From a virus (Duplodnaviria; Caudoviricetes): 64,000 bases of DNA. Positions 32,379-60,108 of the stretch are shown in pieces. Position numbers and translations under genes: made by a program. The stretch covers positions 1 to 64,000 of IMG/VR virus record IMGVR_UViG_3300020577_005688; one strand, given 5' to 3'. Each line of letters opens with the position of its first letter. The stretch's first letter is position 1. The notes beneath the pieces are model-generated. The model did no database searches. It saw only the letters and a program-made list of their open reading frames with translations, and had not been told where the DNA came from.

Positions 32379-32732
32379 TTACTTCGCCTCTGTGTCAGGC
32401 CGTGCTGGGCCCTTTACGATACGGTGTGTCAGGCGTCCTCCGCCATACCCAACGAGAGCGTCACCGGCAGTTCCGACAGCGACTCTTGCGGCCAGTGATT
32501 TCGGGCTTCCAGACGCTTTGAGTGCGATACGACGTGTTTTTGGGTGAGCGAGAATGGCAGCTCGCATCGCAGTACCCACTCCAGCATTTGCGATAGCACC
32601 CCTCTTACCCCATTTGTGGGCACGTTCTTGCTCTGACTCTGCATTTTTCTCAAGATCTAGAAACTCTTGAGCGAGTTCTTCAATCTCGTCAACACTGTAT
32701 CCGTACTCTGCGGCAATTTTTTGAAGTGACAT
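32379..32732 (-). CDS. Acidic-leader/basic Gly-zipper protein (putative capsid cargo)
   Basis: QKIA and EKNA flank an acidic leader; basic Gly/Ala helices follow. Confidence 0.75.
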   Translation of the reverse strand: MSLQKIAAEYGYSVDEIEELAQEFLDLEKNAESEQERAHKWGKRGAIANAGVGTAMRAAILAHPKTRRIALKASGSPKSLAARVAVGTAGDALVGYGGGRLTHRIVKGPARPDTEAK

Positions 32733-33933: not shown

Positions 33934-33964
33934 GTGTTTTTCTCCGTTCAATTCAGTTAGTGGA

Positions 33965-34450
33965 TTAGACCTTGACGTTGGCCATGTGGACGAAGCGAAC
34001 CTTGCTTCCCGTAATCTTCGACACGTAGCCAACAATGATGCGGTTTGCAGTCGCACCAGTGAGAGCAAGACCACGGCGCACGATGCCGCCAATGGTGATG
34101 TCTTGAACGGTAAGGGCCGAACCAATAACGAGCGAGGTCGTGTTCACGATCTGAGTTTCGGCCTCATACGTGCCGAACATCAGGACGTTCACCTTCTTGA
34201 TTGCCTGAACATCGTAGCGACCCTTCTCAGTGTGAACAGGGAAGACGTTGTACTGAGTTGCTTCGTCTGCCGTTCCTGAGTTGTTATCACCACCACGAGC
34301 AAGCTGGTAGGACGAGTTGAGCTCAAGCCACTCACCTTCAACGAGTGGACGAACCGTGAGAGGAGCAAGCATCGTCTCGTCCGCAACTGGGAAATCGCGG
34401 CGGTGAAGAGTCTGGAGCTCCGTGATGAGTTCAAACAGTGGTGCGGGCAT
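33965..34450 (-). CDS. Putative capsid decoration/cement protein
   Basis: Small beta-rich protein just upstream of the MCP. Confidence 0.55.
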   Translation of the reverse strand: MPAPLFELITELQTLHRRDFPVADETMLAPLTVRPLVEGEWLELNSSYQLARGGDNNSGTADEATQYNVFPVHTEKGRYDVQAIKKVNVLMFGTYEAETQIVNTTSLVIGSALTVQDITIGGIVRRGLALTGATANRIIVGYVSKITGSKVRFVHMANVKV

Positions 34451-35933: not shown

Positions 35934-36206
35934 CTACAAATCTCCCCTCGGGAATGCGACAGGGGGTGGTTGGATTACTTTCGAACTCTCAGCAAGATCC
36001 GTTGAAGTTGCCGGTTGGGTCGGATCCTTGTGGACTTTGCTGTAATTTGGTTGTTTTGTCGACAGTGCCGTTCCCTTGCGAGAAACTACTTTCGTCACTT
36101 CCCCAACAGTCGCTGGCTTAACTGCAGCCATTCCAATCTTTTGGAGCTCATCTGAGAACCCCATCAACATTTCCAAACTGAGCTTGGGGATGTTGATGGA
36201 ATTCAC
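35934..36206 (-). CDS. Small protein with FSDELQKIG leader
   Basis: Shares the FxDELxKI motif with other cargo-like ORFs. Confidence 0.65.
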   Translation of the reverse strand: MNSINIPKLSLEMLMGFSDELQKIGMAAVKPATVGEVTKVVSRKGTALSTKQPNYSKVHKDPTQPATSTDLAESSKVIQPPPVAFPRGDL

Positions 36207-37181: not shown

Positions 37182-38762
37182 TTACCTCTCAGTGTATGCG
37201 CCCTGCAAGTACGTCACTGAATCGGGAGATAGGATTGAAGCGGTAGTGGCTGTCTTGTCAAACAGACTCGACAGGCGCACTCCGTAAACCTGCTCTCTCA
37301 ATGTTGGGTCGCTCTCAACCACTGCCTCAACCTTTGAAATCTTCGTCATGATGTTTTGCCTATAACCGTTATAGGCAGCACTGACTTTATCCAAGAGAGG
37401 ATGTTCGATTGGTTTACGGGTGGGAAGAGGGATTTTTTCTACCGAGACCCTAATGGAACGGTGCTTGAGAGGTTCGCCGAATCCGGAACGGGAACTGAGG
37501 TAGGGCTTGAGCAACTCAAGGAGTCGTGAGCCATGAACAGATGGGTCCGCGTCAAGCATTGAGTTGACACCTTCAACTCGTCTAAACACACCGTTACTTG
37601 AATCAAGCTCATCAGCAAAGTCCCTTTCACCCATTCTAATGAGGACAATCCTCTGGAACTCGTGGGGCTTGAGAACAATACCAAGTCCCATGGAGTTTCC
37701 AACGATTTCCTTCAAAGGATGGGTCTCCGCCATCTCATCCAAGGTCTCTGGCTTGATGTCTGGCTCGGAAGCCTCCAAAGCTGGAAGGACCTTCTGAGTG
37801 AAGTGACCTGCAGGAACCTGCTTCACGATTTCGCTTGTCTTGACTGAGAAGCCTTCGGCGAGCTTTTCGAATGGGTCGCATGTTCCACACCCACAAGCAC
37901 ACGAGGCTGCAGCAGCTTTGAACATTCCAGCGAGAGAAGGAGAGTTACCTGCAGTGACCTCTTGGACATGAGCGGAAAGAGATGGGACAGCACAGATGTC
38001 TCCAAGGCAAATCACATCTCCCCTTGATGCCACCTTCGCCATCACCTTCGCAGTTTTATCAGCTCCAATGAATACGAAGCTGATGTCGAAGAACTTTGGC
38101 TGCGTGTTGATGACGTAGATTCTGCGGCCATCTGGGAGAATCTTGTTTGGGCCATAGACGCTCCGGAGTTCCGGAGGAGGCATCATGTGCTGACAGTAAT
38201 CGAAACGCGTCTTCGACTTCTGACCACAGATTGAGCAAACGTCGAATGGGACCTTGCACCCCATCGACACGTCTGGGAACTCACCACCTTCGATTCTGGT
38301 GATGATGCCGTCAGCCTGCTCTTCTTTTGCTTTCGCCCTATCAAGTCGAACAATCAGTTCGACTCTCTTCATCGGATGGTTCAGTACAGAGAGAACTGGA
38401 ACACCGAATGCTCTGGTTGGGTCCTTGTTCTTGTGGTGCTGATAAGCGTGGGCAAAGGTCTCAAACGTCTTGTAGCCGTAGTCGTTGCCTTCATGAGCCA
38501 AGGCATTCCACGGAAAGAAGTCTGCATTGATGTTCGAGCCGAAGTACTCACCAGCACCCAAAGCATTCACCAGGACGTAGACGTGCTTCTTTCTGTCCTC
38601 TTTGGTGAGCTTTGAGATGTATTTCCTCAGAGCGTCTCCAGTCTCCCAGTCAGCAAATGGAGGAGCTCCTGCCTGCTTCTCAAAGGCCCCACTGGAGCCG
38701 AAGAGAGACTGACAGAAGATCCCCATCTCAGTCTGACCTTGAAACTGAATCTGCTTATCCAT
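37182..38762 (-). CDS. Prohead (capsid maturation) protease with Zn-finger insert
   Basis: QHH, DVSMGC, CSICG...CQH and FFDISFV..GAD motifs of the HK97-type protease fold; upstream of scaffold/MCP. Confidence 0.75.
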   Translation of the reverse strand: MDKQIQFQGQTEMGIFCQSLFGSSGAFEKQAGAPPFADWETGDALRKYISKLTKEDRKKHVYVLVNALGAGEYFGSNINADFFPWNALAHEGNDYGYKTFETFAHAYQHHKNKDPTRAFGVPVLSVLNHPMKRVELIVRLDRAKAKEEQADGIITRIEGGEFPDVSMGCKVPFDVCSICGQKSKTRFDYCQHMMPPPELRSVYGPNKILPDGRRIYVINTQPKFFDISFVFIGADKTAKVMAKVASRGDVICLGDICAVPSLSAHVQEVTAGNSPSLAGMFKAAAASCACGCGTCDPFEKLAEGFSVKTSEIVKQVPAGHFTQKVLPALEASEPDIKPETLDEMAETHPLKEIVGNSMGLGIVLKPHEFQRIVLIRMGERDFADELDSSNGVFRRVEGVNSMLDADPSVHGSRLLELLKPYLSSRSGFGEPLKHRSIRVSVEKIPLPTRKPIEHPLLDKVSAAYNGYRQNIMTKISKVEAVVESDPTLREQVYGVRLSSLFDKTATTASILSPDSVTYLQGAYTER

Positions 38763-38774
38763 CGAGGTCACCAA

Positions 38775-39931: not shown

Positions 39932-41035
39932 TTAACCTCCGAAGTTCGTTGGAGGTACAGGAGCGGGCTGCTTCTTTGGAACCATAGATGCCGCAGTTGC
40001 AACGGTTGAGACTGGGTTCCGCTTCATCTCACCAATTGCATTACGGGCGAGTGACCCACCCAATGTCTTTGACTTCAACATAGAGGATCCAGCAGCGAGA
40101 AGACCCCTCCCAGCTGCCATAACGGCAGGAGCGAAGGCACTCTTGATGAAACTATTGACATCAGAGAGCTCGGACTGAACTTCCTCAAGCGCAGTCATGG
40201 TGGTCCTCAAGTCCTCACCAGACATGATCATTGCTGAGTATGACTGAATGAGTGGGTGAGTGGGGTCGACCAGACCGTGAGCCAACTTTTCCCCTTCGGC
40301 GAGCTGCTTCTTTAGCTGCGAGACAGAAGCAACCTTCTCCTGAATAAGACGACCGACGATGGGTTCCAAAAGAGTCTTGGTCTCATCGCCAGTGATTGTC
40401 TCGGTTGCAGCGTAAGCCTCGCCGAAGGAGCCTCCATCAAGAATGTGACGCTTGAGCACGTCGTAGAACTCAGACGCCGCCTCCTTGAAGAGGGACTCAT
40501 GCTGGTTGAACCTATCCATCAGGTTATCACGCAAGGAAGACAGAGTCTCCTTTGCAGACATGACCTCATGGACGATTGTTTCTTTGCTGTAGTTCTTCTC
40601 TTCTCCGGCCGTCTTGAACATGTCGGCCAGACCCTGTTCCGTCTCCTTCGAGGAGGTCTTCACCTTCTTGATTTGCCTGTTGTAGTCGATGTCGGTGTTT
40701 GTTACCACCGTTGGACGAGCTCCATCGGACAAATCCTGAATCACTCTTCCAGCATCTGCGAGGTCGAACTGAGGATAGCTGTGGTCAGAACCAGCCGTCT
40801 TATCTTGGTCGTGCTTTGCGAGGTACACAGCCGTGTTCGCAAATTCAACGACTCGCTTAACCTGCTCCGGCGAGATATAGTCATGCTGAGCAGCGAGCTT
40901 TGAGATACTGTCATTCAATGACACGCCATCCCTCAGAAACATGGTTGCAGCTTCTTTGCCCATCATCTCAAGAGACTCGGGCGAAAGCTTGGCGTGATTC
41001 TTTCCGCTCAAGAGGTAGTCTGTAAACTCATCCAT
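39932..41035 (-). CDS. Putative internal head protein with multiple KxA sites
   Basis: KLA, KTA (twice), KEA, KVA and KSA; amphipathic tail after IKSA. Confidence 0.75.
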   Translation of the reverse strand: MDEFTDYLLSGKNHAKLSPESLEMMGKEAATMFLRDGVSLNDSISKLAAQHDYISPEQVKRVVEFANTAVYLAKHDQDKTAGSDHSYPQFDLADAGRVIQDLSDGARPTVVTNTDIDYNRQIKKVKTSSKETEQGLADMFKTAGEEKNYSKETIVHEVMSAKETLSSLRDNLMDRFNQHESLFKEAASEFYDVLKRHILDGGSFGEAYAATETITGDETKTLLEPIVGRLIQEKVASVSQLKKQLAEGEKLAHGLVDPTHPLIQSYSAMIMSGEDLRTTMTALEEVQSELSDVNSFIKSAFAPAVMAAGRGLLAAGSSMLKSKTLGGSLARNAIGEMKRNPVSTVATAASMVPKKQPAPVPPTNFGG

Positions 41036-41090
41036 TGCGGTAAGCTCCTCAAAGTGGTGGAGAACTTTAGGGTAAAATCCAGGAGGATAC

Positions 41091-41792
41091 GTGGGAAGCC
41101 TTTTCTATTCTTTCCAAGAGGCTGCGAACAGCCTTGGGTGCTCGAAGCGCACGATTCACAACTACATCAAACAGGGTTACCTGCGAAAGTCAAACCAAGA
41201 AGGGAAGGTAGTCCTTTTCAGGGAGGACGTCGAGCAGCTTGCCGCAGAGACGGGCGTAAACCTCCCACCGTTCAACCGGAAGAATTTCTTCTTGTTGTTG
41301 CGGAGAGTTGAGAAACTCGAACAGGACATGCTGGTGGCAAGGAGAAGACTGGACATTCAGGCTGACCCTCTGAGGCCCTCTGCACAGGAGGCGGCTCTAT
41401 TGATGAGAGAAGCGGAGCATGCGTTTGTTCGTGGAACGTGGTCAGAGCCAGAGATGGAGCAATGGGTGTCTGTCTTTGAGCGCCTCGATGAGACAGCCCT
41501 TGAGTCAATGAAGAAACATCTTGGGAGTCTCAATCCCTATGAACCCTTCTTCAAGCTCGTGATGGCCATGATGCAGAGTGTCGCTTCGATTGAAAACTTC
41601 GAAACATCTCTGCCTGCGCAGCTCATGCACAAGAAGTTGGATGAAGGACGTAGGAAGATGAGGGAGTGCATCTTCATGTGGCTCAAGGTCTCCTCGCCAC
41701 TCAATGCCGATGAGGTCGTTCAGTCTCTGGATACAGAGAAGGAAAAGCTCTTCAAGAAGCTCAAAGCAAATAAACCAAGTCCCACGGCATAA
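41091..41792 (+). CDS. MerR/excisionase-type HTH DNA-binding protein
   Basis: YSFQEAANSLGCSKRTIHNYIKQGYL; AGGAGG RBS. Confidence 0.85.
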   Translation: MGSLFYSFQEAANSLGCSKRTIHNYIKQGYLRKSNQEGKVVLFREDVEQLAAETGVNLPPFNRKNFFLLLRRVEKLEQDMLVARRRLDIQADPLRPSAQEAALLMREAEHAFVRGTWSEPEMEQWVSVFERLDETALESMKKHLGSLNPYEPFFKLVMAMMQSVASIENFETSLPAQLMHKKLDEGRRKMRECIFMWLKVSSPLNADEVVQSLDTEKEKLFKKLKANKPSPTA

Positions 41793-41802
41793 GAGTTTTG
41801 AA
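41786..41802 (+). promoter_or_regulatory. GGYATAAG motif (putative phage promoter)
   Basis: GGCATAAGagTTTTGAA, overlapping the upstream stop codon. Confidence 0.65.
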
Positions 41803-41851
41803 CTCGGAATCGTTCCGCGTTCATTCTCTTCTAGAGGGGAAACTCAACATC

Positions 41852-42283
41852 ATGGACGCACAGCAGAACCAGCAGCAGCCTCAGGCGGCTCCTCCCATCC
41901 AGGGACATGTCATCGACACGGACTCTCCGAAGCCCGTGGAGAAGCGGGAGATCCAGAAGGAGCAGTTCGAGCTGCTCGTGAAGGAAGCCGCAGATCACGC
42001 GGAAGAAGAAGGTGATTTCCGCCGAGCCAACAAGCTTCGCGGTGTGAAGTACGAGCCGACCTTCGCCGACACGGCCAAGTCGGTCGCAGTCAAGACGAAG
42101 AACGCCCTCATCACCGTGGGCATCGCCCTCGCCCCGCTCGGTGGCGTGTGGCTCATCTACCAGGGCATCAGGCTCCTGGTTCCCGCCGCCCGCAAGTGGC
42201 CGGCGCTCGGGATCAAGTACAACAACGAGAAGGAGGCGAAGGTCGTTCGTCTCGCTCCCGCTCCCAAGGCGACCACGCCGTAA
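41852..42283 (+). CDS. Predicted membrane protein
   Basis: One hydrophobic segment; very GC3-rich; own promoter motif and terminator. Confidence 0.75.
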   Translation: MDAQQNQQQPQAAPPIQGHVIDTDSPKPVEKREIQKEQFELLVKEAADHAEEEGDFRRANKLRGVKYEPTFADTAKSVAVKTKNALITVGIALAPLGGVWLIYQGIRLLVPAARKWPALGIKYNNEKEAKVVRLAPAPKATTP

Positions 42284-42316
42284 CATTTCCCCGAGAGGAG
42301 CTTCACAGCTCCTCGG

Positions 42317-42359
42317 AGAGTGCGCACGTTTCCCTCCTTTACCGTGCGCACTCTTTTTT
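42317..42359 (+). terminator. Intrinsic (probably bidirectional) terminator
   Basis: AGAGTGCGCACG/CGTGCGCACTCT stem plus T-run. Confidence 0.8.
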
Positions 42360-44151
42360 AGGCCTCAGAGTCCAATCCTGACGTCTTCGCAGTAGGAGAA
42401 AGAATCTCGGGTCGCGGGTACTTGAGCATCGAAGCCAATGTGCAGAGCAAGATAGAGTGGAACGTGTCGTCTGTAGCGTCCGGGGTCTTGGAGTACTGAA
42501 TCTGTCGAAGCTGCTCATTGTATTCACTGAAGATGTTGAGCAGGTCCTTACCGAACGGATCCTCAAACTGCTCCCATCGAGGGAATCTGAAGAAGTCCCT
42601 CCTCTTGATAGCAGTGAAGATGTCGGTCATCACTTCAGTGCGGTGTACGAGGAAACGATGGAGCTTCTCCTCCCACTTCACCTTCTGACCTGGGTTTGAG
42701 TACTGATACTTGACGATACGGTTCTTGCTGAACATACGAGCCAGCGCGTCATTTCGATCGAAACCACCACCGTAGTCGACACCAATCAATTTGACGTCCC
42801 ACCGTCTGATGAGCTCTCCAATCAGCTCCAACTGAACGGGTGGTTCCATCTCCTGACCTTCGAAACGGTGAACGTAGAAGATAGTAAATCTGCCGTTCAC
42901 ATACGTTCCAAGAGAAATGATGGTGTACGTGTTCTCACCAGTTCCCCAGTCGATTCCAGCAAAGATGTCCATCCCACCAGACATCTTGTTCTTCAATGCC
43001 TGCATACCCTCAGCAGTCATCAAGAGCTCTGGGTCACAGTTGTCCATCACATCTTGTTGAGTAAGGGGCCTCATACCGGAGTCGCAGGCTTCTCCGAGAA
43101 CCTCATTGAAGAACTTTGGTTGAGAGTAGGTTGTGTAGGAGTCTAGAATCTCACTCCACTTCAACCAAGGAACCATCAACTGTGGGATCCGAAAGCCTTC
43201 GTACGGCTCAGTGAGCTTCTCTTTGACTGAGGCGTTCATCATTGCCCAACGAGACTCATTCCGCATTGGGTGGATGATTTCACCGCACTTGGCACAGATA
43301 AGACCCTTCTTCCCGATGTTCTGCTCTCCAAGAATGTTCCAATACCAAGTGGAAGGGTCTGATGGGACTCCATGGTGGTCGCAAGGAACAACCCACTCAT
43401 TCTGGGTTGAGTACTTCGTCCAGTAGTACTCAATCGAGTTATCGAAGGACTTCGGTGTTCCAGAGTAGATGAAGATCTTGAACGGAGAGTGAGATGCACA
43501 CTGTTCAATGACCGGGATGTTCTCTGTGATGATGTCCTGCAGCTCGTCAAGCAGGACCATGTCAGCTGGGATACCACGCGTTCTATCTGCGTTGTGGTAC
43601 GCGTACCTGAGAGTCACTTGGCTTCGATTGATGAACTTCTTCTGGAAGACGTTGTCGCTGAGCTTCGACGTCGTCCAGGCCTTCAGTACGTCTGAGGTCT
43701 CGATGGGCTCCTTCAGACGGTCCTGTGAGAAGGTCTTTGTTTGCTGGTTGGTGGGAGACACATACAAAACATTGAACGCGTTGATGATGCAACAGTAGGA
43801 GAGAGTCTTGTTACCGAGCAGGGTAGACTTCTCGACCTGACGACCGCACTTGTAGAGAGTACGCTTGGATGGGGTGTCGTAAGGAAGTCGAAGATACCTG
43901 CGGCCCTCGAACGAGAAGGGCAAGAACTTCTGGGACTTCTTGTCCGGAACTTTGACGGCAAACTCTACGAACTGAGACGGGGTTACTGAGAGAAGGGTCG
44001 ATTGCTTGAGCGCGAGCTCATCCTCATCTAGGAAGCCTTCGTACACTTCCTTTTCGTAGTCCCACTCTTCCTTGAGCTCAGGCTCTCCGCTCTCAGAAAT
44101 GACGACGTTGGCGTTGTTTCTGAAGTACTCTTCGCTTGAGACGACAGTCAT
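42358..44151 (-). CDS. terL: Terminase large subunit
   Basis: GRQVEKST Walker A variant, LLDE, SGTP, nuclease AGIDWG and DD.FHS. Confidence 0.9.
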   Translation of the reverse strand: MTVVSSEEYFRNNANVVISESGEPELKEEWDYEKEVYEGFLDEDELALKQSTLLSVTPSQFVEFAVKVPDKKSQKFLPFSFEGRRYLRLPYDTPSKRTLYKCGRQVEKSTLLGNKTLSYCCIINAFNVLYVSPTNQQTKTFSQDRLKEPIETSDVLKAWTTSKLSDNVFQKKFINRSQVTLRYAYHNADRTRGIPADMVLLDELQDIITENIPVIEQCASHSPFKIFIYSGTPKSFDNSIEYYWTKYSTQNEWVVPCDHHGVPSDPSTWYWNILGEQNIGKKGLICAKCGEIIHPMRNESRWAMMNASVKEKLTEPYEGFRIPQLMVPWLKWSEILDSYTTYSQPKFFNEVLGEACDSGMRPLTQQDVMDNCDPELLMTAEGMQALKNKMSGGMDIFAGIDWGTGENTYTIISLGTYVNGRFTIFYVHRFEGQEMEPPVQLELIGELIRRWDVKLIGVDYGGGFDRNDALARMFSKNRIVKYQYSNPGQKVKWEEKLHRFLVHRTEVMTDIFTAIKRRDFFRFPRWEQFEDPFGKDLLNIFSEYNEQLRQIQYSKTPDATDDTFHSILLCTLASMLKYPRPEILSPTAKTSGLDSEA

Positions 44152-45350: not shown

Positions 45351-45386
45351 TACGATGGGCCTGAAGTTAGGCCCATTTTTTAACTC

Positions 45387-46110: not shown

Positions 46111-46578
46111 TTAGCAGTACTTCCTTGTCATCTTCTTCTTCAACGACCCAGCCATTTTAGAGAAGGCTGACTTCTCCATCTTCTTCAACTTCTTGTAGTA
46201 GTCAGAATCTTCTGCAAGGTGGTCTTTTGCAATCTCTTTTGCAATTGAGGGGTCTTTGGTGTGCTCCTTCTCCACCTTCTGACCTGCCATCAACTCCTTC
46301 TTTGGAAAGTCAGAGGACTTCATATGGTCAGCGAGTCCACCTTCGATCTTGTCTGTTTGCCTGTTCTGAGGATTAAAGGAAGACCCGTCACTATAGCGAT
46401 AGACCGAGTAGAGACGCTTCGAAACTGGATCCCTCATCCGTTGAATCTTTGAAACCTTCTTCTCTTCTGGAGAAGCCTTCTTGACCTTCTCGGGGAGCTT
46501 TTTCATGTTTGGAGTCTCATCTGCCCATCGCTTTTTCGGTTTGCTTCTCTTCGACACCACTTCCCGTAAAGTTTCCAC
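46111..46578 (-). CDS. DUF5661-like protein
   Basis: GGLAD...G.KVE.EHT....AKEIAKDHL.E..DYY.KL signature; ends in EKSA/SKMA. Confidence 0.75.
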   Translation of the reverse strand: METLREVVSKRSKPKKRWADETPNMKKLPEKVKKASPEEKKVSKIQRMRDPVSKRLYSVYRYSDGSSFNPQNRQTDKIEGGLADHMKSSDFPKKELMAGQKVEKEHTKDPSIAKEIAKDHLAEDSDYYKKLKKMEKSAFSKMAGSLKKKMTRKYC

Positions 46579-47374
46579 CAGGAGCGAGCATCTTGATGTC
46601 GGGGGGAGGGATCTGAGGGTGCTCCATTCGGAATCGCTCGAAGTTCTTCAAGATGTCCTTCAGAGCCATGTCCGAAGTTGAGAGGGCTTCGTGACAGTCA
46701 ACGATGGTCTTCCCAAGGACGCCGATAGCCTTGACCTTGTCCGGCCCAGTTCCAGGCTTCCTACTGACCTCTTCAATGGTGAAGTAGGCAATCTCCTGCG
46801 TCCTCTGAATCATCGTCTTTGAGTCGATTGCCTGTTGGAGCTGCAGGTGAAACATTGCGAGCTCTGGTGTTGCTTGGAGCATCGACATGTACCGTTCGTA
46901 CATGCCTGACCTTCCATACAAGAAGCGACCCCACTCATCCCACGTCAGAAGGTCGACATTCCAGAACATGTCATGGAAGGCACCCATGCCCTCTGCTGAG
47001 AGGTGCCATCCGTGTTTCTTGTTCAAGCGAAGAGCGATGGCTTTTCGATCGAGTCGTGCGAGAAGAGCTTGCTCGACATTCAGACGAACGAGAGGGTCGC
47101 TCAGAATCTTCCACGCTTGTCGTACACCATCGGTCGGGTGGAAGAACTCGAAGATACCGTGTTTTCGAAGGAAGTTCATCGAAGGACGGTGAGCTCGGTT
47201 TGTGTAATCAAACCCAGGAGGCTCGTCCTTCAACTCTTGCTTCAAGAAATCGAGGTACACCGTCTCAGGAGTGAGAAATCCCCAATCCTCCAGATTCTTC
47301 AAAATCTCTGGAGTCTTGATGTTCTCGTCCTTCACCATCAAGTACTTGATGAAGTGGTGTGCTGGATGTTTCAT
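46517..47374 (-). CDS. Helical hypothetical protein (possible small terminase-like)
   Basis: 285-aa coupled ORF; the function is a guess from proximity to terL. Confidence 0.6.
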   Translation of the reverse strand: MKHPAHHFIKYLMVKDENIKTPEILKNLEDWGFLTPETVYLDFLKQELKDEPPGFDYTNRAHRPSMNFLRKHGIFEFFHPTDGVRQAWKILSDPLVRLNVEQALLARLDRKAIALRLNKKHGWHLSAEGMGAFHDMFWNVDLLTWDEWGRFLYGRSGMYERYMSMLQATPELAMFHLQLQQAIDSKTMIQRTQEIAYFTIEEVSRKPGTGPDKVKAIGVLGKTIVDCHEALSTSDMALKDILKNFERFRMEHPQIPPPDIKMLAPGGNFTGSGVEEKQTEKAMGR

Positions 47375-48174
47375 GACAGGTTCGAGATCTGAAGAAGCTC
47401 TTGAAAGAAAGAGGGGAGACGCATTCCGAGCTTATTGAAATCTGAGCTCTTCTTGAATGCCTCCCATGCATTATTGATGTCTTGCATGTCCTTGGTATTT
47501 CCACCCCTATCTGGGTGATGCTTTGCAGCCTGCTCGCGATATTTCTTCTTTGCATCTGCCTTCGTTTTAACGTCTTTCAACCAATCGGGGGTCCTGACGT
47601 TCTGAGGAGGCTTTGGAGGAGGAGCATACCCTCCGGCATTCGAGGAGCCACGTTGATTTTGATAGTTCTGCCGAGCTTCCCGACTCTTCCGTTCGGTGTC
47701 TGCCCATTCCTTACCAAAATCCTGCCAACGACTTTTGAAGTCTTCCCAATCTTTGTCACTCTTCTCTTGGTGAGATTTCCACTTTGCCTGAGTCTCTGCT
47801 CTTCTTTTTTCGTACCTGAAATCGTCTGCTCTCCACTTCCTTCTCATCTTGATGCTGCTTCTTGTGAGATCTTTATCCATACCAGAGAAAGAGCCAATAC
47901 CATGGCCGAGGATACCTCCGGTTGCGGCGGCACTAATCACTGCGCGTCTCTGGTTTTTGAGTATTTTCTTCTTCTTTTTTTCAGGCAGCTTTTTGAAGTG
48001 CTCTGATTTTCTGATAGACCTCACACCTGCGTATGCAGAAGTCCCACCAGCAGCGGCCCCGATACCGGCTCCAACAAGTCCTCGACGAAGTTCGTTATTC
48101 GTCTTGAGGACTCTCTTGGCATGAGTAAAAGCGCCCTTCAGAGACCTTTTGAACGCTTCTTTTGTTTCTGACAT
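47371..48174 (-). CDS. Gly-zipper protein with C-terminal J-domain (HPD)
   Basis: GAGIGAAAGG and TGGILGHGIG helices; KKKYREQAAKHHPDRGG...QDINNAWE. Confidence 0.8.
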   Translation of the reverse strand: MSETKEAFKRSLKGAFTHAKRVLKTNNELRRGLVGAGIGAAAGGTSAYAGVRSIRKSEHFKKLPEKKKKKILKNQRRAVISAAATGGILGHGIGSFSGMDKDLTRSSIKMRRKWRADDFRYEKRRAETQAKWKSHQEKSDKDWEDFKSRWQDFGKEWADTERKSREARQNYQNQRGSSNAGGYAPPPKPPQNVRTPDWLKDVKTKADAKKKYREQAAKHHPDRGGNTKDMQDINNAWEAFKKSSDFNKLGMRLPSFFQELLQISNLS

Positions 48175-48177
48175 TGA

Positions 48178-50832
48178 TCACTCCTGCGAGTACTGAAGAG
48201 CCTTCAACGAGAGGATAACCTCTTCCATGTTCTTCATTGACCGCTCGACTGCTCCAATCGGGATTTCCTTCATGCCGAGGTAACCAGCAAGAACCATCTC
48301 AGCCATCTTCTCAGAGCACTGCTCAAGCTCTGGCAAGAACTCGATGAAGGTCGAGAGGTTCTCTGGATTGATGAAGTTCAAGGCCAAGACTTTATCGACT
48401 GTACCCTGGTCTTCCATCTGGGCGGCTTCCTTGATGAGGTCCTTCCTCAAGTCAGGGAGCTTGGAGAGAAGGCTGGAGGCTGTCTTCACAGACTCCTGGA
48501 ACCTCTCAGCCAATGGAACAATGGTCTTCAACCCAGCGAGCTTGACCGAGCCGGTCCTCCGAGCCTCAGCAACCTTCTGCTTTGCGGTCACACCATCGAC
48601 GCCAAGAAGACCGAGCATGAACTCAGCACTCACGGCATCGAGACTGTGCTTCAAGTCAGCAGCAACCTTGTCGAGGCCACACCCACCAACGATGTTGAAT
48701 GCACCGTTGTAGAAGAGAACAGCAGAGGTCTTCTCTCTGTTCACCTTCTTGGAAGAACCCACAGACTCTCCCTTTTCTGCGAGAGAGACTTTGGAGTTGA
48801 GACGAGTGAATCCCCAACCATGTGGGAGTGCGTACTCATCTTCTGCAATCTTCTGAGGGGTCTTGAGGCCTGGAATGATAGAGACCTTCACTTCGTTTCC
48901 GAAGGAATCGACTCCAATATAGCGCGGAACTCCATCGGACCCATTCATTCCAAACTTCACTTCGATGGGAGCAGAGGCCTGCGTCCCATCGGAAGAACGG
49001 AACACACCAAGACCCTTTGGAATGTCGATAGGCGGAGACACATCCTCTGACTCGACCTTCTCTCCAACGATGTCCTGCTGAATGGCGTGACCCTTTTCTC
49101 CAACAAACAGGCCAGTCTTCTGAGGTGAGAACGACTCGTCCCAGGCAAAGGTCTCTGGGAAGACCCAACCTTCCATGGTCTTTCCAGCAGTCGTCTGGAC
49201 CTTGTAACGACCGAACTCGGAAACAGCAGAAGTGTCTGAAGCTTCTTCTGTGTCGAGTTCAACTGGGTCAGAAACAGCAGTTGCTGTCTGGCCAGGCTGC
49301 ATTGCCTTCGCGACTGGAGCCCCAATTGCCTCTGCCACCTCTTCAAAGGGCACGACTTGACCCTGAGCTTGGGCACCGCCTGCAAACGCCTGAACGTTTG
49401 CCGACTTCACCATGAAGGCTCCACCTGGGAGCTTCTGGAATGTCACAACAGAGGGCTCAATAGAATCGGCAAGCGTCTGCAGACGGTCATTTGCAGAAGC
49501 GAGCTTCGTGTCCATCACTTCGACAAGAGTCGCAGCAATGCCAGACTTCTTGAAACCCGCACGGAGGAACGGATCCGCTGCAACCTTCTCAACAAAGGCA
49601 TCCCTATCCGACTCTCGAAGAGTAGGAGCAATTGCTTGGAGAAGTGACGCAGTCTTCACTCCAGGCGAGGCAGCTGGCTTCTGTGGTTGAGCAGAAGACT
49701 TTTGAGCCTGAGCTGTTGCCTTTTGAGCCTGCTGACCTGGCGAAGGTGGATATACCTTTGGGTGGTATCCGTATTGGTTTGCGGCGATTGAGTAGACCTC
49801 GTTGATCACCTCTGGGTGGTCGTGGGTCATGTGCTTCTGAATCATCTTCTGAATCTTGTCGCTCTTGTAGATGGCCTCCCACTGCTCTTTCGAGATGTGC
49901 TTGAAGGCCTTCTTCTCCTTTGGCTTTGCTGCTTTTGGAGCCTTGGGAGCGGGAGCAGCCTCCTCCGGTGCTTCTTCCATTCCCCCTTCTTGAGCAGCTG
50001 CATCGAGACCCTGCTCATGTGGAGAAGGAGCAGCAGCCATCTGAACACCGGCCTGAGCTGCCAAGAGCTCTACATCAAGATTCCTCTTCTCCAAGTGGAG
50101 AGCGTCACGCTGAAGATTCTTCGCCATGCGCTGTGAGGCACGACCGGAAGACTCCTCAATAGTCTGCTCCATCTCACGCTGTGAGAGGTCCTCTTGGTCA
50201 AGAGTGAGAAACTGCTTCTGAAGTTCAAGAGCCTTCTCGAAGAGGGCGGTTCCAACATACTTCTTGAGCCACTCATCTCGATAATCGAGACTCGGCGAAG
50301 GTGATGACGAAATGGGCGAGCCCGCCTCAAGGGCCATTGCCATCTTGTACTCACCACCCATGCCGATTCCCGAACGCTGCGGAGGCATCAGAGGCTCGAC
50401 AAGACTTGGGTCTCTCGGCACAGATGTAGAGAGGTCAAACATTGCTGGGTTGAAGAGCGTCTCACGAATTCGCTCTTCACCGAGAGGAAGGACGCGCTCT
50501 CCATCCAAGAAGACGGAGAACGGACGTACTTGCCTCTCCTCCGCTACGAGAGGGATTCGAATATGAGGAATACCAGCCTCCTCATGCTCGATCTCTGGGC
50601 GTTCTGTCCTGTTCGCAACGTCAGCATAACCAAAGGCAAACCCACGCCCTTGATCAACCTTGTCGAGAGAGACATTCACTTCGTAATCAGACAGGAATGG
50701 ATACTGGCGGTGAAGTTCGCTGCCAATCTCCTGGCCCCAGTTATCTGGCGTCTCAGACAGACGATGAGTGAATCCAGCTTCCTTGGTCTGAGGCTCTTCA
50801 GTTGTTGCTGGACGCAGAAACAGTGAACGCAT
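48178..50832 (-). CDS. Large putative internal head protein with many KxA sites
   Basis: 884 aa; more than 12 K-x-(A/S) sites. Confidence 0.75.
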   Translation of the reverse strand: MRSLFLRPATTEEPQTKEAGFTHRLSETPDNWGQEIGSELHRQYPFLSDYEVNVSLDKVDQGRGFAFGYADVANRTERPEIEHEEAGIPHIRIPLVAEERQVRPFSVFLDGERVLPLGEERIRETLFNPAMFDLSTSVPRDPSLVEPLMPPQRSGIGMGGEYKMAMALEAGSPISSSPSPSLDYRDEWLKKYVGTALFEKALELQKQFLTLDQEDLSQREMEQTIEESSGRASQRMAKNLQRDALHLEKRNLDVELLAAQAGVQMAAAPSPHEQGLDAAAQEGGMEEAPEEAAPAPKAPKAAKPKEKKAFKHISKEQWEAIYKSDKIQKMIQKHMTHDHPEVINEVYSIAANQYGYHPKVYPPSPGQQAQKATAQAQKSSAQPQKPAASPGVKTASLLQAIAPTLRESDRDAFVEKVAADPFLRAGFKKSGIAATLVEVMDTKLASANDRLQTLADSIEPSVVTFQKLPGGAFMVKSANVQAFAGGAQAQGQVVPFEEVAEAIGAPVAKAMQPGQTATAVSDPVELDTEEASDTSAVSEFGRYKVQTTAGKTMEGWVFPETFAWDESFSPQKTGLFVGEKGHAIQQDIVGEKVESEDVSPPIDIPKGLGVFRSSDGTQASAPIEVKFGMNGSDGVPRYIGVDSFGNEVKVSIIPGLKTPQKIAEDEYALPHGWGFTRLNSKVSLAEKGESVGSSKKVNREKTSAVLFYNGAFNIVGGCGLDKVAADLKHSLDAVSAEFMLGLLGVDGVTAKQKVAEARRTGSVKLAGLKTIVPLAERFQESVKTASSLLSKLPDLRKDLIKEAAQMEDQGTVDKVLALNFINPENLSTFIEFLPELEQCSEKMAEMVLAGYLGMKEIPIGAVERSMKNMEEVILSLKALQYSQE

Positions 50833-51954: not shown

Positions 51955-52629
51955 TCAAGGAGAGTTATACTGTTTAATGGTTTTTTGTTCTTGGAGGTCC
52001 GTCAGTCTTCTCCTTGCGTGTCTTGAGAGACGAGTACCCGACCCATATGGAATTCGAGCGGGCATTAGTGACGCTTCACCAATACCCTCTCTATAGTGCT
52101 TCATATGAGCCCTAACTGCCTCATTTCCGGGAGGGAGGGTCGCTAGACGATTGTGCTCCCGAAAAATAACATCTGGGCTTCTATGACCGTAATGGGCGGC
52201 TCCAATTCGTCCACGAACGGAAGATTCGTCAAGTTCGTGACCTTTAACAACTGCATGAAGCATCTTTCTTTGGTCCGCAGGGACCTTCGGAGCATTGCCG
52301 AGTCCTCCGAGAGTTGAGCTGTGCATTTGCTTTTGAATAGAACCACTGCCCGGAAAAATAGCGGGTCGGTCTCTGACGAGCTTCGAGACGGGCTGGCTCT
52401 CTACTGCCGATCGAACGTGCTCACCTGCACCCGGAGAAATCAAGTTGGCACTTCTAACGGCGTCACCAACGAGTCGACTTTTATTTGGGGAGGCAGAGAG
52501 GAATGGCTGTACTCGTGCAGACGCTTTTGGAAGCTGAATTCTCTTGGCAAGAGACAAAACCTTAGAGGCCTGATCAGCACCAAAAGCAATCTTTACTAGC
52601 TCATCAGAGAAAGACTCAAAGGAGATCAT
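51955..52629 (-). CDS. Basic protein with FSDELVKIA leader (putative capsid cargo)
   Basis: TAATG coupling to the RNAP stop; GHELDE/GH/EH residues in the C-terminal half. Confidence 0.75.
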   Translation of the reverse strand: MISFESFSDELVKIAFGADQASKVLSLAKRIQLPKASARVQPFLSASPNKSRLVGDAVRSANLISPGAGEHVRSAVESQPVSKLVRDRPAIFPGSGSIQKQMHSSTLGGLGNAPKVPADQRKMLHAVVKGHELDESSVRGRIGAAHYGHRSPDVIFREHNRLATLPPGNEAVRAHMKHYREGIGEASLMPARIPYGSGTRLSRHARRRLTDLQEQKTIKQYNSP

Positions 52630-55600
52630 TAGTAGTGGCCCTTTGGCTTTGAAGGATGGCCCTTCCCGAACTCTGCACCAAACGCGACACCTGGGATTGG
52701 GTGTTTTCCGTGGATGTCTGACTTCCATCCCTGAGATGCCGCCTGTTGCAGAGTACTGTGGAGCTCACGATAGTTGAGACGTGCCATCCAGTCTGACGTT
52801 CCGGTCAGCGGCAACTGAGAGATGCTCTTCAGGATAGGTTCGTGAGTAATTGGGCGCTTGTCCTTTGGAAGACCTCTGTTGTGTTCATCCACGATAGAGG
52901 TTGGGACGATGTCGCCGTGGAGGAAATCACTTGTTCCTGGGTCCTTTACCTTTGTGAGATTCGTCAAAGCTCGAACCACTACCTCAACGTTCCTCTTTCT
53001 AACTCCTTCCTTCTCGTACAGACCACCATACATCTCATTTGTGAGATGGTTTTGGACGGTGTGCATGTCTGTGAGTGGTAGGAGGTGATGAGGATTGATG
53101 AATCCGTGAGAGACTGGTGTTCCTTTCTTCACCTCATCCCCAACCTTCAGGTCTGTATTCACCAAGTCCTTTGGAACGAAGTGGCGCTCGTCTCCGATGA
53201 AAATATCGACGCCACCAACACTGTCCCTCTTGATGTTCGTAATCTTCCCAGAAGTGCGAGCAAGAGTGGCCGAGTTCTTCAACTTCGCTGGCATGTTGAG
53301 AGCGTTACGAAGCCGAGTCAACCGGTCTACTGACATTGCTCCTCGACCAGTAGCAACACCACCAGTGTGGAACGCGTCCATCGCCATCTGAACTGCAGGC
53401 TCCGAGAGCGCCTGTCCAGCGAGAACACCGATGTTCGTTCCGACATCGTGGAGTTTCCCACTCTCATTCAATCCGAAGCACTTCGCACAGATTCCTTCTC
53501 CGTGCTGGCACTTCAGTGGAGAACGCACCAAGACCTTGTCGATCTTTGAGTTCTTGAGTCGGTTGACGACTTCTGGCGTGACAAGTGTTCCAGCTTTGAT
53601 TTCATCTCCTTCCTTCAAACGATAAGACTTCGAGAGGAATCGGTCATGGATGTCTTTGTGGACAACATCCATCAGAACTCCATGGCTCGTCTTACAGTCT
53701 GGAGATGAAACAATCGTAGCAATCGTTGAGTTGATGATGTCCTTGGAGACAACACCAGGCTCAGACGTTCCAAGAACACGCTGCAGCGTTCCTTTTCGAG
53801 CTCCATGCTGGGCGAGCCAGTAGTCACCGATGTCCAGACCCTCTGCGTAGTTCTTGAGAATGGGGGTTGGGATGATGTTGTTTTGAGAGTCTTGAACAAG
53901 CATCGGGGCAGCAATCATCTGGCGAAGTTGCTCTGCCTTTCCACGTGCTCCTGACACGACCATGTCTGCAAGTCGATTCTGGCCAGCAGGCAACTTTGCG
54001 GCGTGCTCCAACTGTTCGGTCGCCTTTTGGTAGATGTCGATGATGCGTTTGTTCTGTTCATCTTTGTCTTTGACTGTGTTCTTGATTGCAGTCACTTGCT
54101 TCTGCGCATCACCAAGAATCTTGTGGCGCTGAGGAAGGGTGGCAAGGTCCTTGAGTCCAAAAGAGAAACCGAGCTTGTACGCCCACTCATTGCCGAGGTC
54201 TTTGAGTTGGTCGACTACTGAAGCGAAGTCTCTTGTGTGATTCTTTGCGAGGGGCGTGATGATTTGAGAGTTCAGAGACTTCTTATCGATAGTCCAGAGC
54301 GGATTGTGGAGAATGTCCTTGTTCAGATGGAAGTCGCGAGGCATCCTCGACTCAAGCAGAAGACGACCGAAGGTAGTCTCCTTCCCACCAATCTTCACGA
54401 CGTCGGTAGGCTTCACCTCTCCTCGGTCGACTGCCTTGTTGAGCTCCAGAGGTGTCTGGAACGACTTAGAGGTTTTCTCGCCCCATCGCGAGATGAGGTG
54501 CAGACCGAGCATTGAATCTTGCGTCGGTGCATACATGACTGCACCAGTAGTGGGAGAGAAGAGGTTCTTCGATGGGAACATCTTCTTTGCTTCCTCGACA
54601 GCTTCTCTTGTCAGAGGAACAGTACCTGCCATTGTATTGTGGACGATGACACCGCCAAATACGGCAAAAACATGGCTCTCGTCATCAACTTCGATGTCGA
54701 TCATCCGATCGTCATACGGCACTTCTTCGATGGTCTTGACTTCAAAACCGCGTGCGCTTTGTGATGAACGAGAATCCTTGCGCATGGTCTCATACTCCTC
54801 ACGAGCCTGACGCAACAGATCTCCTTTCTTGCCGGGGATCCGGTAGTCGAGAAGTTTAATGGCTTCTTTACCAAACGACAGAATGTAGCAAGGTCCGCAA
54901 GCATGGTCCCTGTCTCGGACAGAGAAAGGCAGTCCAAGCATATTCGCAATCAGAGCCATATCATCTCTCAAGGTTTTACTCTTTGACCACGTTCGAACAA
55001 GCCAACTTCCAGAACGAGTCACTTCGACAGATCCGTCCGATTGAATATACCCAGCGAGCATACCCTTCAAAAATTCCTCGCCCCTATACATGAGCGGGCC
55101 CATCACTGCCTTGCCTGTGCAGTAACGACCACAGAACGCAAGGAACTGCCTCGCCAGACCCACATCCGAGATCTGAAAATAACCGTGGTGAGAATCGGTG
55201 ACGTGGACGTTGAACTCTCTCTTCCACAGACCGATGAGGTACTCACGCTCAATAACAGGCTTGCAGGCGATCGAGATTCGTCCACCTCCTTGAGGAGGTG
55301 GACGAACTTCTGCTGATCCGTCACCAAGGAAGTTACCGAAGATGACACCATTTTCGTAAGAGTACGTCTCACTAGAGAACGAGGGTTCGATGCGCTGATG
55401 ATCGAGTTCAGTTCCAATCTTCATATCACCGGGCTTCATTTCCCTACGCCCGACCATCAGTGAATGGTCTTCCGAAGCAATGAACGAGAGACCATTCTTG
55501 AGAGTGACTCGGAACTTCTTCTTATTCTCGACCTTGTGGAACGAGATGTTCTTGATCGGACGCCAGCCGTTGTAGGTGTAGGCTTCGATGTTCTTGACAG

Positions 55601-58600
55601 CAGAGACCCAATTCCCATCGCCTGCACCGAGAACTTCGATCAGTCTTCGACCAGTGACTTGCTGAACTGCGCCACTGAAACGGAGCGGAATCGGGGTGTC
55701 CAAGTCGATAGAGTCCCCGTCGAAGTCGGCGTTGTACCCACCAGTCACGAGAGGGTGAATCTGAATTGCCTTTCCCTCAATGAGCTTTGGTGTGAAAGCC
55801 ATGACAGAGAACTTGTGGAGAGCCGGGTCTCGCTTCAAGAGAAGAGGACGGTCTCGTACAACACGCTCAAGAGCGTCGAACGCAGACTTAGAACCTTTAC
55901 GCATCTCCTGCTGAGCTTCGAGAGGCTTGAAGCCTGTCTTTCCGAGTTCAGCAACAACGAAGGGCTTGTACAACTCCATTGCGGCACCCTTCGGGATGCC
56001 GACCTCATCAATCCCAAGACGAGGCTCTGGAACAATCGTTGAGCGAATTGAGAGGTTCTGACGCCTCTTCACGAGTCTGGATTGGAAATACGCATCCTTC
56101 GGTTGCTCTCCATCGCCGCCACCGATGATGTCGAGGATGCCCTTCAAGGCGCGTTTGGCACCTGCAGGAGAGTCCATGTCATAACCGACAGAACCTCCCA
56201 CTGATTGAAGTGCCTTCACACTCTCGTACAACTGTGAGCGCAGAGGCATTCTGACTTGCTCTGGGAATACCTTCGGGTCGGCCTCCACAAGCTTGTTATT
56301 CAGAATCGCAATGTTCTTGTACAGACCGTTCAAAGAAGATGTTTGAAGATCTCCCTTTGGAGTTACTGTTGCTGGTCGGAAAGCTGGAGGGAGCACAGGA
56401 ACGTACTTCATGATGTACGCTTCGTGCGGTTTCAGTCCTGCTTCGTCGACTGCAAGAAGGTACTTCATCTTCTTGTTCGCTCTGTCGAGGTCCGCTCCAG
56501 TGAGAATCGGGAGACGCTCCTTGAGCGTCTTAATCTCGGCCTTGACGTCAACCTTCTTCAGGGCTTCAAGAACTGCCTCACCACCAGTCTTACCGTGGAG
56601 CTTCGTCTCTCCATTCATGACTGACTCAAACTCCTTCATCTTCATTCCAAGAAGAGAAGGGATCGGTCCAGGGCGATGATTCGAACCCACGAAGATGGGA
56701 TTGGGGATTGGCTCGGTCAACTTGATGAATCCCCACTTGGAGCCACTCAAGCCTCCAGTTGCGACCGGGTCAAAGAGGCCTCCCTTCTCCTCCTTCAAGT
56801 CCTTTGCCCTGAGAAGGAGGTGTCCCTTCGTGATTTCTCCACGAGCCCCACCCGCCATCTCAACGACTTTCTTGTCTGTGAGCGGAGTCAGTTGAAGAAT
56901 TGACCCCTTCTTCTCCACATTGACGCCGAGTCCGTTCAACAATCCAACAAACTTCTGGTAGCTGAATGGAGCTTTTGGAGGAGGAGGCTCGTATCCTTCT
57001 TGAATCATGTTCCAGAAGGTAGAGTCCTGCATGTCGGACTTGTACGTCGCCATTTCACGAATGTTGTGGCGAGCGTTGTGCGCCAAGAGAGAATAGAGAT
57101 CGAGGGCACCGATACCCTGACCTCCTCGCTCTCCACCTTTCGTAGGAGCTCTATCGATGTCGTAAGTAAGAGGACGGCCATTGATGTCTGTTCCTCCTCC
57201 TCGAACTGTGAGCTTCTTCTCGACTTGGTGCTTGAGTTTGAGAAGGTGTTGAGGACCAACGAGGACGGACCCAAGAACCTTGCTCGGATTCATAGGGTCG
57301 AACACGCTCTCCTCATCAGAGATACCGTGCTTCTTCAATTCTTGGAGGACCTTTTCTCGGTTGTCTGAGTTTGGGCCTTCGAAGTTATTGACGATGTACG
57401 TCTTCCCTGTCTTCTCTGCAATCTTACCAGCTGCAGTCTCAAGTACCTGACCGACGTTGATTCTCGTAGGTACGCCAGTCGGGTTCAGAAGAACTTCGAG
57501 AGGACGCTTTTCCCCCTTCTCGTCCTTCGTGAAAGGCATCTCATGGTCGGGGAGAATCATCGTCACGATTCCCTTGTTTCCGTGACGACCGGAGAGCTTG
57601 TCTCCGATAACAACAGGCTCGACTGTCTTTACGTAGACTTTTGCACCTCTGCCCGAGGGGTCTTTGACAATCTTGACTACCTCACCCTGGTGGTCTTCGT
57701 CCCAAACAAGTGACTTATCCTTGTAAGGTTGGAATGCTCGCTTTCCGAGAGCAGCAAGGGCACTTCCCTGCCTTGAGGCGAGGTTCTTCCCAACTGCAGC
57801 AATCAACACCTGGCCTGGGTTTACCTTCGACCCAACGCGGATGATGCCGTCATCGTCCAACATCCCGAGCTGTTCTTTGGTCAGTTGATTGGATCGAGTG
57901 GCAGCGAACGCAACGAACTTATTCTTCGAGATGACGTCGTTGTCTGGGTCAAACTCCACAGACTTCTTGTGGAGGTGCTCTGAGCTCAGTTTCTTAGAAG
58001 CGGTCTCAGAAATAACAATACCGTCTTCGTAGTTGTAACCCTTGTACGGGATGTACCCCACTCGGAGATTTGAACCGAGCGCGAGAGCTCCTCCCTTTGT
58101 GAAGTTCGAGTCCGCGATAACTTGGCCCTGAGAGACCTTGTCGCCGACCTTTACGACGGCCTCAGAGTGCATCATTCCCTTTGGGTCGTTGAGGGGGAAG
58201 TGATTGTACAGATGTACTTGGTGGTTCTTCTTTCCGTCATTGATGACGATGTGGTCGTCTTTGACTGTCTTCACCGTTCCAGAGATGGGGGCTCGATGTG
58301 AGCTGAACCCACCCAGGACTTTCTCGAAAGTCATTGAAGGGTCGGCGTGATCTGTCTTCGATTGAACGAGAGGAGCTTCTCGATACTTCAGACTGATGGC
58401 TTGCTCCATCTGCTTATCTGCCATCGAGACTCTGTTGCCTTGGTTCGATGGGAGGAAAGGAATGAGGTTCGATGCCATGTCGAACATGCCCTTCGATGAG
58501 GGCATAACAAAGCCAGCTTCCGAGAACGGCCGAACTTCAATCGACCCTCCAGGGAGCTTTACTTTCACCATGTTCGAGATTGGGACTGGCTTTCCCTTCA

Positions 58601-59969: not shown

Positions 59970-60108
59970 GTCTTCCTCTTTCGGCCACACTGCGGAGTGG
60001 TTTATGGCGTACCCGGCTCTACCCCACCGCAGAGAGGGTCATCGAGCCTTAGCATCCCACATTACATGCTTCTCGAAAGGAAGGTCAACAAAGTCGACGA
60101 AGTGTCGG

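Follow-up and report, generated by a model that had tools for sequence, protein, structure and literature searches.

DjlA of Escherichia coli is a membrane-anchored type III J-domain protein with one true transmembrane (TM) helix and a central TerB-like domain. The capsid-targeting sequence of phage T4 sits on IPI-III and Alt, and the cargo peptides of encapsulins work from either terminus. Here we describe a phage gene that recalls both kinds of system. It lies on the minus strand of a 64,000-nucleotide stretch (hereafter the window), the first 64 kb of IMG/VR virus record IMGVR_UViG_3300020577_005688 (Duplodnaviria; Caudoviricetes), and encodes a protein of 267 amino acids (aa), here called the J protein, in which two glycine-zipper helices are followed by a charged spacer, a J-domain and a short tail. 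Judged by its sequence, this tail is a copy of a terminal tag found throughout the phage lineage, and that match is our main new result. Two further systems bear on it: Rki (gene 057w) of the T4-like phage RB43, a phage J-domain protein that acts through host DnaK (PMC3486835), and AtcJ of Shewanella oneidensis, a short J-domain protein whose 21-aa C-terminal extension binds a partner (PMC6715715). Phage J-domain proteins are frequent in sequence data, yet only Rki has been studied, as an early host-takeover factor.

The J protein resembles each of these systems in part. Like DjlA, it has an N-terminal Gly-rich hydrophobic helix, a linker and a C-terminal J-domain, and its DnaK activity is expected to be localised. 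It differs in that it has a pair of Gly zippers, weakly hydrophobic and flanked by positive charges, as well as an additional tag at the C-terminus, and belongs to a phage late operon. It does not fit the DjlA family: outside the J-domain, Pfam gave no match at E<=10, TerB included, and there are two sub-threshold helices rather than one TM helix. Pam18/Tim14, the J-protein of the mitochondrial import motor, is also among the closest known systems. Rki is likewise phage-encoded and carries a J-domain, but its J-domain is N-terminal, its expression is early, and it has neither Gly zipper nor tag; the family described here, which spans hundreds of clusters, is late and modular, with a tag common to a lineage-wide set of proteins. 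AtcJ has the same plan as some very short relatives of the J protein, although it is bacterial, its extension is unlike theirs in sequence, and no counterpart of its partner AtcC was identified in this phage. With the capsid-targeting sequence of T4 and the packaged enzymes of the P1 DarB type, the tag shares its occurrence as a short common terminal peptide on unrelated, mostly small basic proteins and on some enzymes; the gene of one carrier stands between those of the protease and the major head protein. However, the tag is unrelated in sequence to that of T4, and its position in the J protein is C-terminal.

A J-domain followed by a shared terminal peptide

An earlier, sequence-only reading had picked out the open reading frame (ORF) that encodes the J protein, and it is borne out as a real, conserved gene on the minus strand. 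Its parts are as follows.

47371..48174 (minus strand): whole J gene, 267 aa plus stop, from the ORF list; Gly-zipper / J-domain / tag protein
48082..48174 (minus strand): residues 1-31, basic N-terminal helices, net charge +6
48022..48081 (minus strand): residues 32-51, glycine zipper 1 (G35xxxG39xxxG43)
47944..48021 (minus strand): residues 52-77, lysine-rich loop, net charge +11
47878..47943 (minus strand): residues 78-99, glycine zipper 2 (G86xxxG90xxxG94xxxG98)
47650..47877 (minus strand): residues 100-175, long charged helix, a spacer of variable length
47590..47649 (minus strand): residues 176-195, Gly/Pro-rich flexible linker, with no secondary structure and a lower predicted local distance difference test (pLDDT) score
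47425..47589 (minus strand): residues 196-250, J-domain (helix I remnant, helix II, HPD loop, helix III, helix IV)
47509..47517 (minus strand): H220-P221-D222
47386..47409 (minus strand): residues 256-263, tail motif FFQELLQI, a degenerate copy of F-x-D-E-L-x-K-I-A within a predicted helix (254-266)

The sequence-only reading described a minimal J-domain made of helices II-III with an intact HPD. The HPD, which lies in the loop joining helices II and III, is indeed intact, and it does not vary across 72 aligned relatives, but the domain is fuller than that description. A helix I remnant (with conserved P196 and W198) and helix IV (with conserved F246 and K248) are also present, and the domain is compact but complete. 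Hidden Markov model searches and structure prediction both point to a J-domain. The Pfam DnaJ profile (PF00226) matches residues 204-242 of the protein with an E-value of 2e-5 and 25.1 bits, against a cut-off of 27.8, and reaches 26.8 bits on the DNA; two relatives carry a precomputed PF00226 assignment. A profile of the family matches only J-domains in the PDB, the best with an E-value of 4.6e-6. The AlphaFold2 model has the four-helix J fold with an antiparallel helix II/III hairpin, at a pLDDT of 93-98 in the J-domain as against 72-84 in the tail helix. Residues 190-250 superpose on the J-domains of Tim14, T-antigen and CbpA; the top structural match is Tim14, with a Z value of a generic level. 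DnaK recruitment, which the sequence-only reading had expected of this protein, is thus supported as the expected activity of a J-domain with an invariant HPD, and from what is known of the family we expect this one to recruit and activate the DnaK of the host. The phage record encodes no Hsp70 gene of its own.

The tail is where the J protein departs from known J-domain proteins. The protein ends in SFFQELLQIS, and its last predicted helix, residues 254-266, is amphipathic. The sequence-only reading had called this end tag-like. A real, conserved motif is present; it is the helix ahead of the variable last residues, not a tag of the ssrA type at the very end. We rejected an ssrA-like degron because the extreme C-terminal residues differ among relatives (SNLS, RSRP, AGAE, RER, YNR and others). 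Among 155 representatives of the J family, 8 have an exact F.DELEKIA at the C-terminus, 20 a near-exact copy and 81 a loose one; the motif starts a median of 36 residues past the HPD and ends a median of 4 residues before the C-terminus.

The same motif stands at the N-terminus of five small basic proteins of this phage. In the whole 141-kb record, F.DEL.KI[A/G] occurs five times, each time a few residues after a start codon, and it is absent from 60 Markov-resampled genomes. The five carriers (76, 224, 322, 182 and 99 aa) are basic, and 3/5 have Gly/Ala-rich hydrophobic segments. Two of them are placed as follows.

35934..36164 (minus strand): 76-aa protein that begins MGFSDELQKIG, between the protease-like gene and the head genes
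51955..52629 (minus strand): 224-aa basic protein that begins MISFESFSDELVKIA, just downstream of the RNA polymerase gene

Tagged genes are found at the matching protease/head position in four relatives (L126, L155, L145 and L116). The N-terminus of the RNA polymerase itself lacks the F.DEL.KIA tag. In a complete 210-kb relative (G001), two tag leaders accompany the J tail, and another relative (L170) has a tag-led Gly-zipper protein at the place of the J gene.

The motif extends well beyond this record. A scan of IMG/VR DNA found 116 stretches that could encode an exact F.DELEKIA, where a rough estimate of ~1e-11 per position gives a handful by chance. In the loci that we kept, there were 75 in-frame matches, and nearly all of them follow a start codon by 3-14 codons. 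These loci come mostly from relatives of this phage, and one small carrier keeps a conserved position, with the protease-like gene on one side and the major head gene on the other. The median carrier is 120 aa long, and the median net charge is +10.5; a Gly/Ala-rich segment is present in 19/70. Some related IMG/VR phages have long tag-led enzymes, namely two SNF2-family helicases, a glyoxalase joined to a GNAT acetyltransferase and a zinc-peptidase-like protein with HELGH (L105:790-2925, L114:90-1568, L135:4862-6034 and L137:7188-7916). A peptide shared between the ends of otherwise unrelated proteins, as in T4-type cargo, is seen at three levels: on the five N-terminal carriers and the J tail of this phage, in G001, and in the 116 stretches. 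A literature search for the motif string returned no match. The tag would link the J protein, and so host Hsp70, to a phage protein-tagging system that has not been described before.

Complex prediction with a tail-less J-domain (residues 186-252) and the first 45 residues of the tagged 182-aa protein gave an interface score (ipSAE) of 0.00 in both runs, which speaks neither for nor against binding. Separately, the complete relative G001 (L086-L096) has, at 32522(+) and 147834(-), small ORFs that end in the tag-like peptides SFINELGAI... and FVEELSKI; C-terminal use of the tag may therefore not be limited to the J protein.

The whole architecture is retained in close relatives (63-99% identity across the full length), and distant ones retain the Gly zippers, the J-domain and the tail. 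A profile search of 1.84 billion representatives gave 347 matches at E<=1e-10 and 29 at E<=1e-30, many of them across the full profile. All of the family members that we looked up are metagenomic and named "hypothetical", and matches in cultured phages cover only the J-domain, never the tail. Proteins of 74-76 aa consist of J-domain and tail alone (P0054, P0112), which suggests that J plus tag is the core unit; permuted forms, in the order Gly zippers, J-domain, tag, Gly zippers, also exist. One metagenomic member of 640 aa (P0082) is fused behind a domain with a KxDG nucleotidyl-transferase (ligase/capping-like) motif. This protein and P0087 have the stretch W-x-L-D-K-G-D-I-E-K-S-A just ahead of the Gly zippers, which resembles a second leader variant.

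The Gly-zipper half and the spacer

Both of the Gly-zipper helices noted in the sequence-only reading are present, and G35, G86 and G90 are near-invariant in the 72 relatives. The Pfam glycine-zipper profiles PF05433, PF13488, PF13441 and PF13436 gave no listed match at E<=10, though HMMER filters drop weak matches. A profile of the Gly-zipper half picked up small Gly-zipper ORFs in related loci at weak, composition-biased scores, and we do not count these as homology.

Whether these helices anchor the protein in a membrane, as had been supposed, is doubtful. In 19-residue Kyte-Doolittle windows the two Gly helices reach at best 1.17 and 1.26; the family median is 1.22, and 3/72 members reach 1.6, so that the helices fall below TM hydrophobicity family-wide. 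The three flanks of the helices are all net positive (+6, +11 and +7). Because every flank is cationic, there is no simple two-pass topology that keeps the J-domain in the cytoplasm, with the +11 loop outside and the J-domain inside. By this hydrophobicity scale and by charge topology, the J protein does not look like a two-pass integral membrane protein; peripheral association or oligomer-assisted insertion is still compatible with the data.

The charged coiled coil of the sequence-only reading survives as a charged helix, which AlphaFold2 models as continuous over residues 65-175 (pLDDT >90) and joined to zipper 2. Trp residues stand at 114, 132, 143, 150 and 157 (spacings 7-11-18). The spacer is the variable part of the protein, close to zero in length in one syntenic relative (L005) and in the complete relative G001, and ~170 aa in another (L002). 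It is also length-polymorphic within the species. In wastewater strains of this phage, 30 nt are inserted in frame at 47761, within the spacer, and substitutions cluster between 47503 and 47775. In these strains, 15/18 substitutions in the J-domain and linker (47503-47641) fall at third codon positions, as against 8/16 in the spacer.

Possible roles of a tagged J protein

What might a J protein with such a tail do? We favour, at somewhat less than an even chance, a late-expressed class-C (type III) J-domain adaptor that would direct DnaK to the tagged proteins or to the place where these end up, probably the prohead. To the same tentative degree, the protein can be seen as three address or anchor modules joined to one effector module. 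From the observations above we infer stimulation of DnaK, a binding partner for the tag and a final location for the protein. By analogy with its family, the J-domain (residues 196-250, HPD 220-222) would bind ATP-bound host DnaK and trigger its ATPase. The C-terminal tag helix would take the J protein to a receptor that it has in common with the N-terminally tagged small basic proteins, Gly-zipper proteins and enzymes. On the model of the T4 capsid-targeting sequence and the encapsulin cargo peptides, this receptor would most likely be the prohead under assembly, be it scaffold, protease or capsid interior. AtcJ is a further precedent, since it contacts its partner through a short C-terminal extension (PMC6715715). 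The basic Gly-zipper hairpin may bind similar helices in the tagged proteins or a membrane surface, and the charged helix would act as a spacer of variable length. The net effect would be DnaK at the tagged proteins or the assembly site during morphogenesis, keeping those proteins soluble or unfolded for loading, and the J protein may be loaded together with them.

A role in morphogenesis, with the prohead as the likeliest site, is suggested by the late, coupled operon in which the J gene lies, by the one carrier encoded in the head module and by the likeness of the carriers to basic internal proteins. Packaging of the J protein itself is unproven; circumstantial support comes from the identity of its tail to the leader of small basic, cargo-like proteins, one of them in the head module. 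Several observations weigh against the prohead adaptor. The tag is N-terminal on every other carrier seen and C-terminal on the J protein, so it may work differently there, and the tail of this phage's J protein is a degenerate copy, with Q in place of D, L in place of E, Q in place of K and S in place of A. The J gene is absent from the fetched parts of several syntenic relatives, which makes it an accessory gene. Furthermore, the very strong conservation of the tag across diverged phages would be explained by a conserved host partner no less well than by a capsid partner that evolves fast.

In another account, the tag would dock as a helix on the J-domain or on DnaK. In cis it would cover the DnaK-binding face, as helix V does in DNAJB1; in trans, the leaders would displace it and the tagged proteins would be recognised as clients. 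The tag lies at a fixed distance past helix IV, even in the permuted relatives, and the motif is acidic and amphipathic where helix II is basic. A very highly conserved tag suits a partner such as the J-domain or DnaK, and the idea keeps its appeal in that conservation of the tag far exceeds what is usual for phage structural proteins. The lower model confidence of the tail helix, given above beside that of the J-domain, tells against it, and we rank it as the least likely of the accounts considered here. Host takeover in the manner of Rki seems to us improbable too, if less so. The J-domain would then titrate or redirect DnaK, for example with sigma-32 stabilised, heat-shock proteins induced or a DnaJ/DnaK-dependent defence sensor blunted, and the other modules would tune stability or location. 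Rki, the sole characterised phage J-domain protein, acts in this way (PMC3486835), J-domain proteins are common in uncultured and T4-like phages, and a host DnaJ-dependent defence sensor is cited in PMC12619734. However, Rki is early and has its J-domain at the N-terminus, whereas the J gene is coupled into a late structural and packaging operon, and conservation of Gly zippers and tag over hundreds of clusters points to a specific address rather than to simple titration.

The sequence-only reading offered an import motor: a packaged and ejected protein would insert its Gly-zipper helices into the host inner membrane, and at the cytoplasmic face its J-domain would recruit DnaK, which would draw in ejected proteins, the 2,453-aa RNA polymerase among them, or refold them, much as Pam18/Tim14 works with mtHsp70. 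We regard this as unlikely, with a slightly better claim than host takeover or docking. The J gene shares its operon with the single-chain RNA polymerase and a spike-like protein, its tail equals the leader of cargo-like proteins, and the tagged helicases and other enzymes of relatives recall injected proteins. The order of hydrophobic hairpin, spacer and C-terminal J-domain parallels Pam18 and DjlA, and Tim14 is the best structural match. That match is only generic in Z level, though; the RNA polymerase has no tag, the Gly helices are under TM hydrophobicity throughout the family, and their cationic flanks allow no fitting topology. The import motor is a more specific, speculative form of the idea of an addressed DnaK; it needs both packaging and membrane insertion, and the latter is disfavoured by hydrophobicity and charge.

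If the adaptor is placed in a wider frame, a lineage of uncultured ~200-kb phages may use the ten-residue F-x-D-E-L-E-K-I-A peptide as an address on a changing set of proteins, with the tag-bearing J protein coupling that set to host Hsp70. It could then load unfolded cargo into the prohead or, after ejection, serve as a DnaK-driven ratchet or refolding station. We put this forward as a long shot, if a somewhat better one than any of the three alternatives just weighed. Such a system would give phages their first described protein-delivery step that depends on Hsp70. Should the tag serve as a loading signal, it offers a tractable case for how large phages choose cargo and whether host Hsp70 takes part; if it binds the J-domain or DnaK, it is a new short linear motif for the selection of Hsp70 clients.

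The late operon and the phage lineage

The J gene was said to lie in the head gene cluster, which is only roughly right. It is part of a long minus-strand late operon, between a spike-like gene with an 884-aa core gene on one side and a possible small terminase on the other, ~3 kb from TerL and ~13 kb from the major head protein. The J gene is translationally coupled on either side: its ATG, preceded by an AGGAG at 6 nt, follows the TGA of the 884-aa gene upstream at a distance of 3 nt, and at the other end its stop codon and the start codon of the 285-aa gene downstream overlap within ATGA. The minus-strand run, from ~60 kb down to ~45.4 kb, encodes in order the RNA polymerase, the 224-aa basic protein, a 367-aa OB-fold spike-like protein, the 884-aa protein, the J protein, the 285-aa protein, a DUF5661 protein and a 151-aa protein. 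Beyond it come RNase HII (on the other strand), TerL, portal, protease and head genes. No promoter- or terminator-like signal stands above background inside the run, and a strong hairpin ends it.

52629-59990 (minus strand): single-chain beta-beta' multisubunit RNA polymerase, 2,453 aa, with an intein/LAGLIDADG insert (Pfam Rpb2_6 at 6.7e-60, Rpb1 domains, LAGLIDADG_3)
48178..50832 (minus strand): upstream coupled gene, 884 aa, core protein of the lineage
46517..47374 (minus strand): downstream coupled gene, 285 aa
46111-46578 (minus strand): DUF5661 protein, 155 aa, two genes downstream of the J gene
45354-45377: hairpin at the end of the run
42358-44151: TerL
39932-41035: portal-candidate ORF
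37182-38774: protease-like gene
32809-34125: major head protein

Synteny is kept in two relatives (L002 and L005), with RNA polymerase, spike, 884-aa gene, J and 285-aa genes (in either order), RNase HII and TerL. The 884-aa protein is well conserved, with at least 147 homologues at 45-95% identity, some of which have DUF5661 inside. It has a low-complexity Ala/Pro/Gln/Lys insert at about residues 270-400, and in its AlphaFold2 model (pLDDT 76.7) the middle is rich in beta structure and predicted with confidence, and the C-terminal domain is helical. The protein had no match in the Atlas, and its fold none in the PDB by Foldseek; a wide VIA-align search gave generic helical hairpins only, and BFVD yielded one uncharacterised phage homologue and no fold match. 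The 285-aa neighbour is syntenic in five relatives (L002, L005, L129, L166 and L170) and has no Pfam or PHROG match. Its Atlas features lie nearest to DUF2280 (score 0.89-0.90), and on this lead it may be a small terminase.

The linear source record is 141,350 bp long, with an estimated completeness of 75%. Complete relatives with terminal repeats measure 179-210 kb, placing the phage in a lineage of ~200-kb uncultured phages. Near-identical DNA occurs in ~10 studies of river, freshwater, activated-sludge and wastewater samples. Among cultured phages there is no near relative, TerL having at most 30% identity to Bacillus phage terminases. We considered membership of the Moraphages, which encode DnaJ/DnaK, and rejected it, since they have no RNA polymerase and are thus a different lineage (PMC12619734). 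Contigs covering the J gene are present in wastewater RNA-seq libraries; because such libraries can contain DNA, these contigs are no evidence of transcription.

Two observations concern the neighbouring genes. The portal-candidate ORF encodes 367 aa, as against 534 aa in its L002 homologue, and in the 1.3 kb that separate it from TerL (region 39932-42358) the only ORFs are on the plus strand or, on the minus strand, short; the portal gene may therefore be interrupted or rearranged. The DUF5661 protein has a KKLPEKVKK-type stretch in common with the N-termini of some J-family members (P0007 and a protein at L002:7272-8378), and the same members also begin with the motif PFKSQAQRRKFY. The common stretch suggests shuffling of modules among small proteins.
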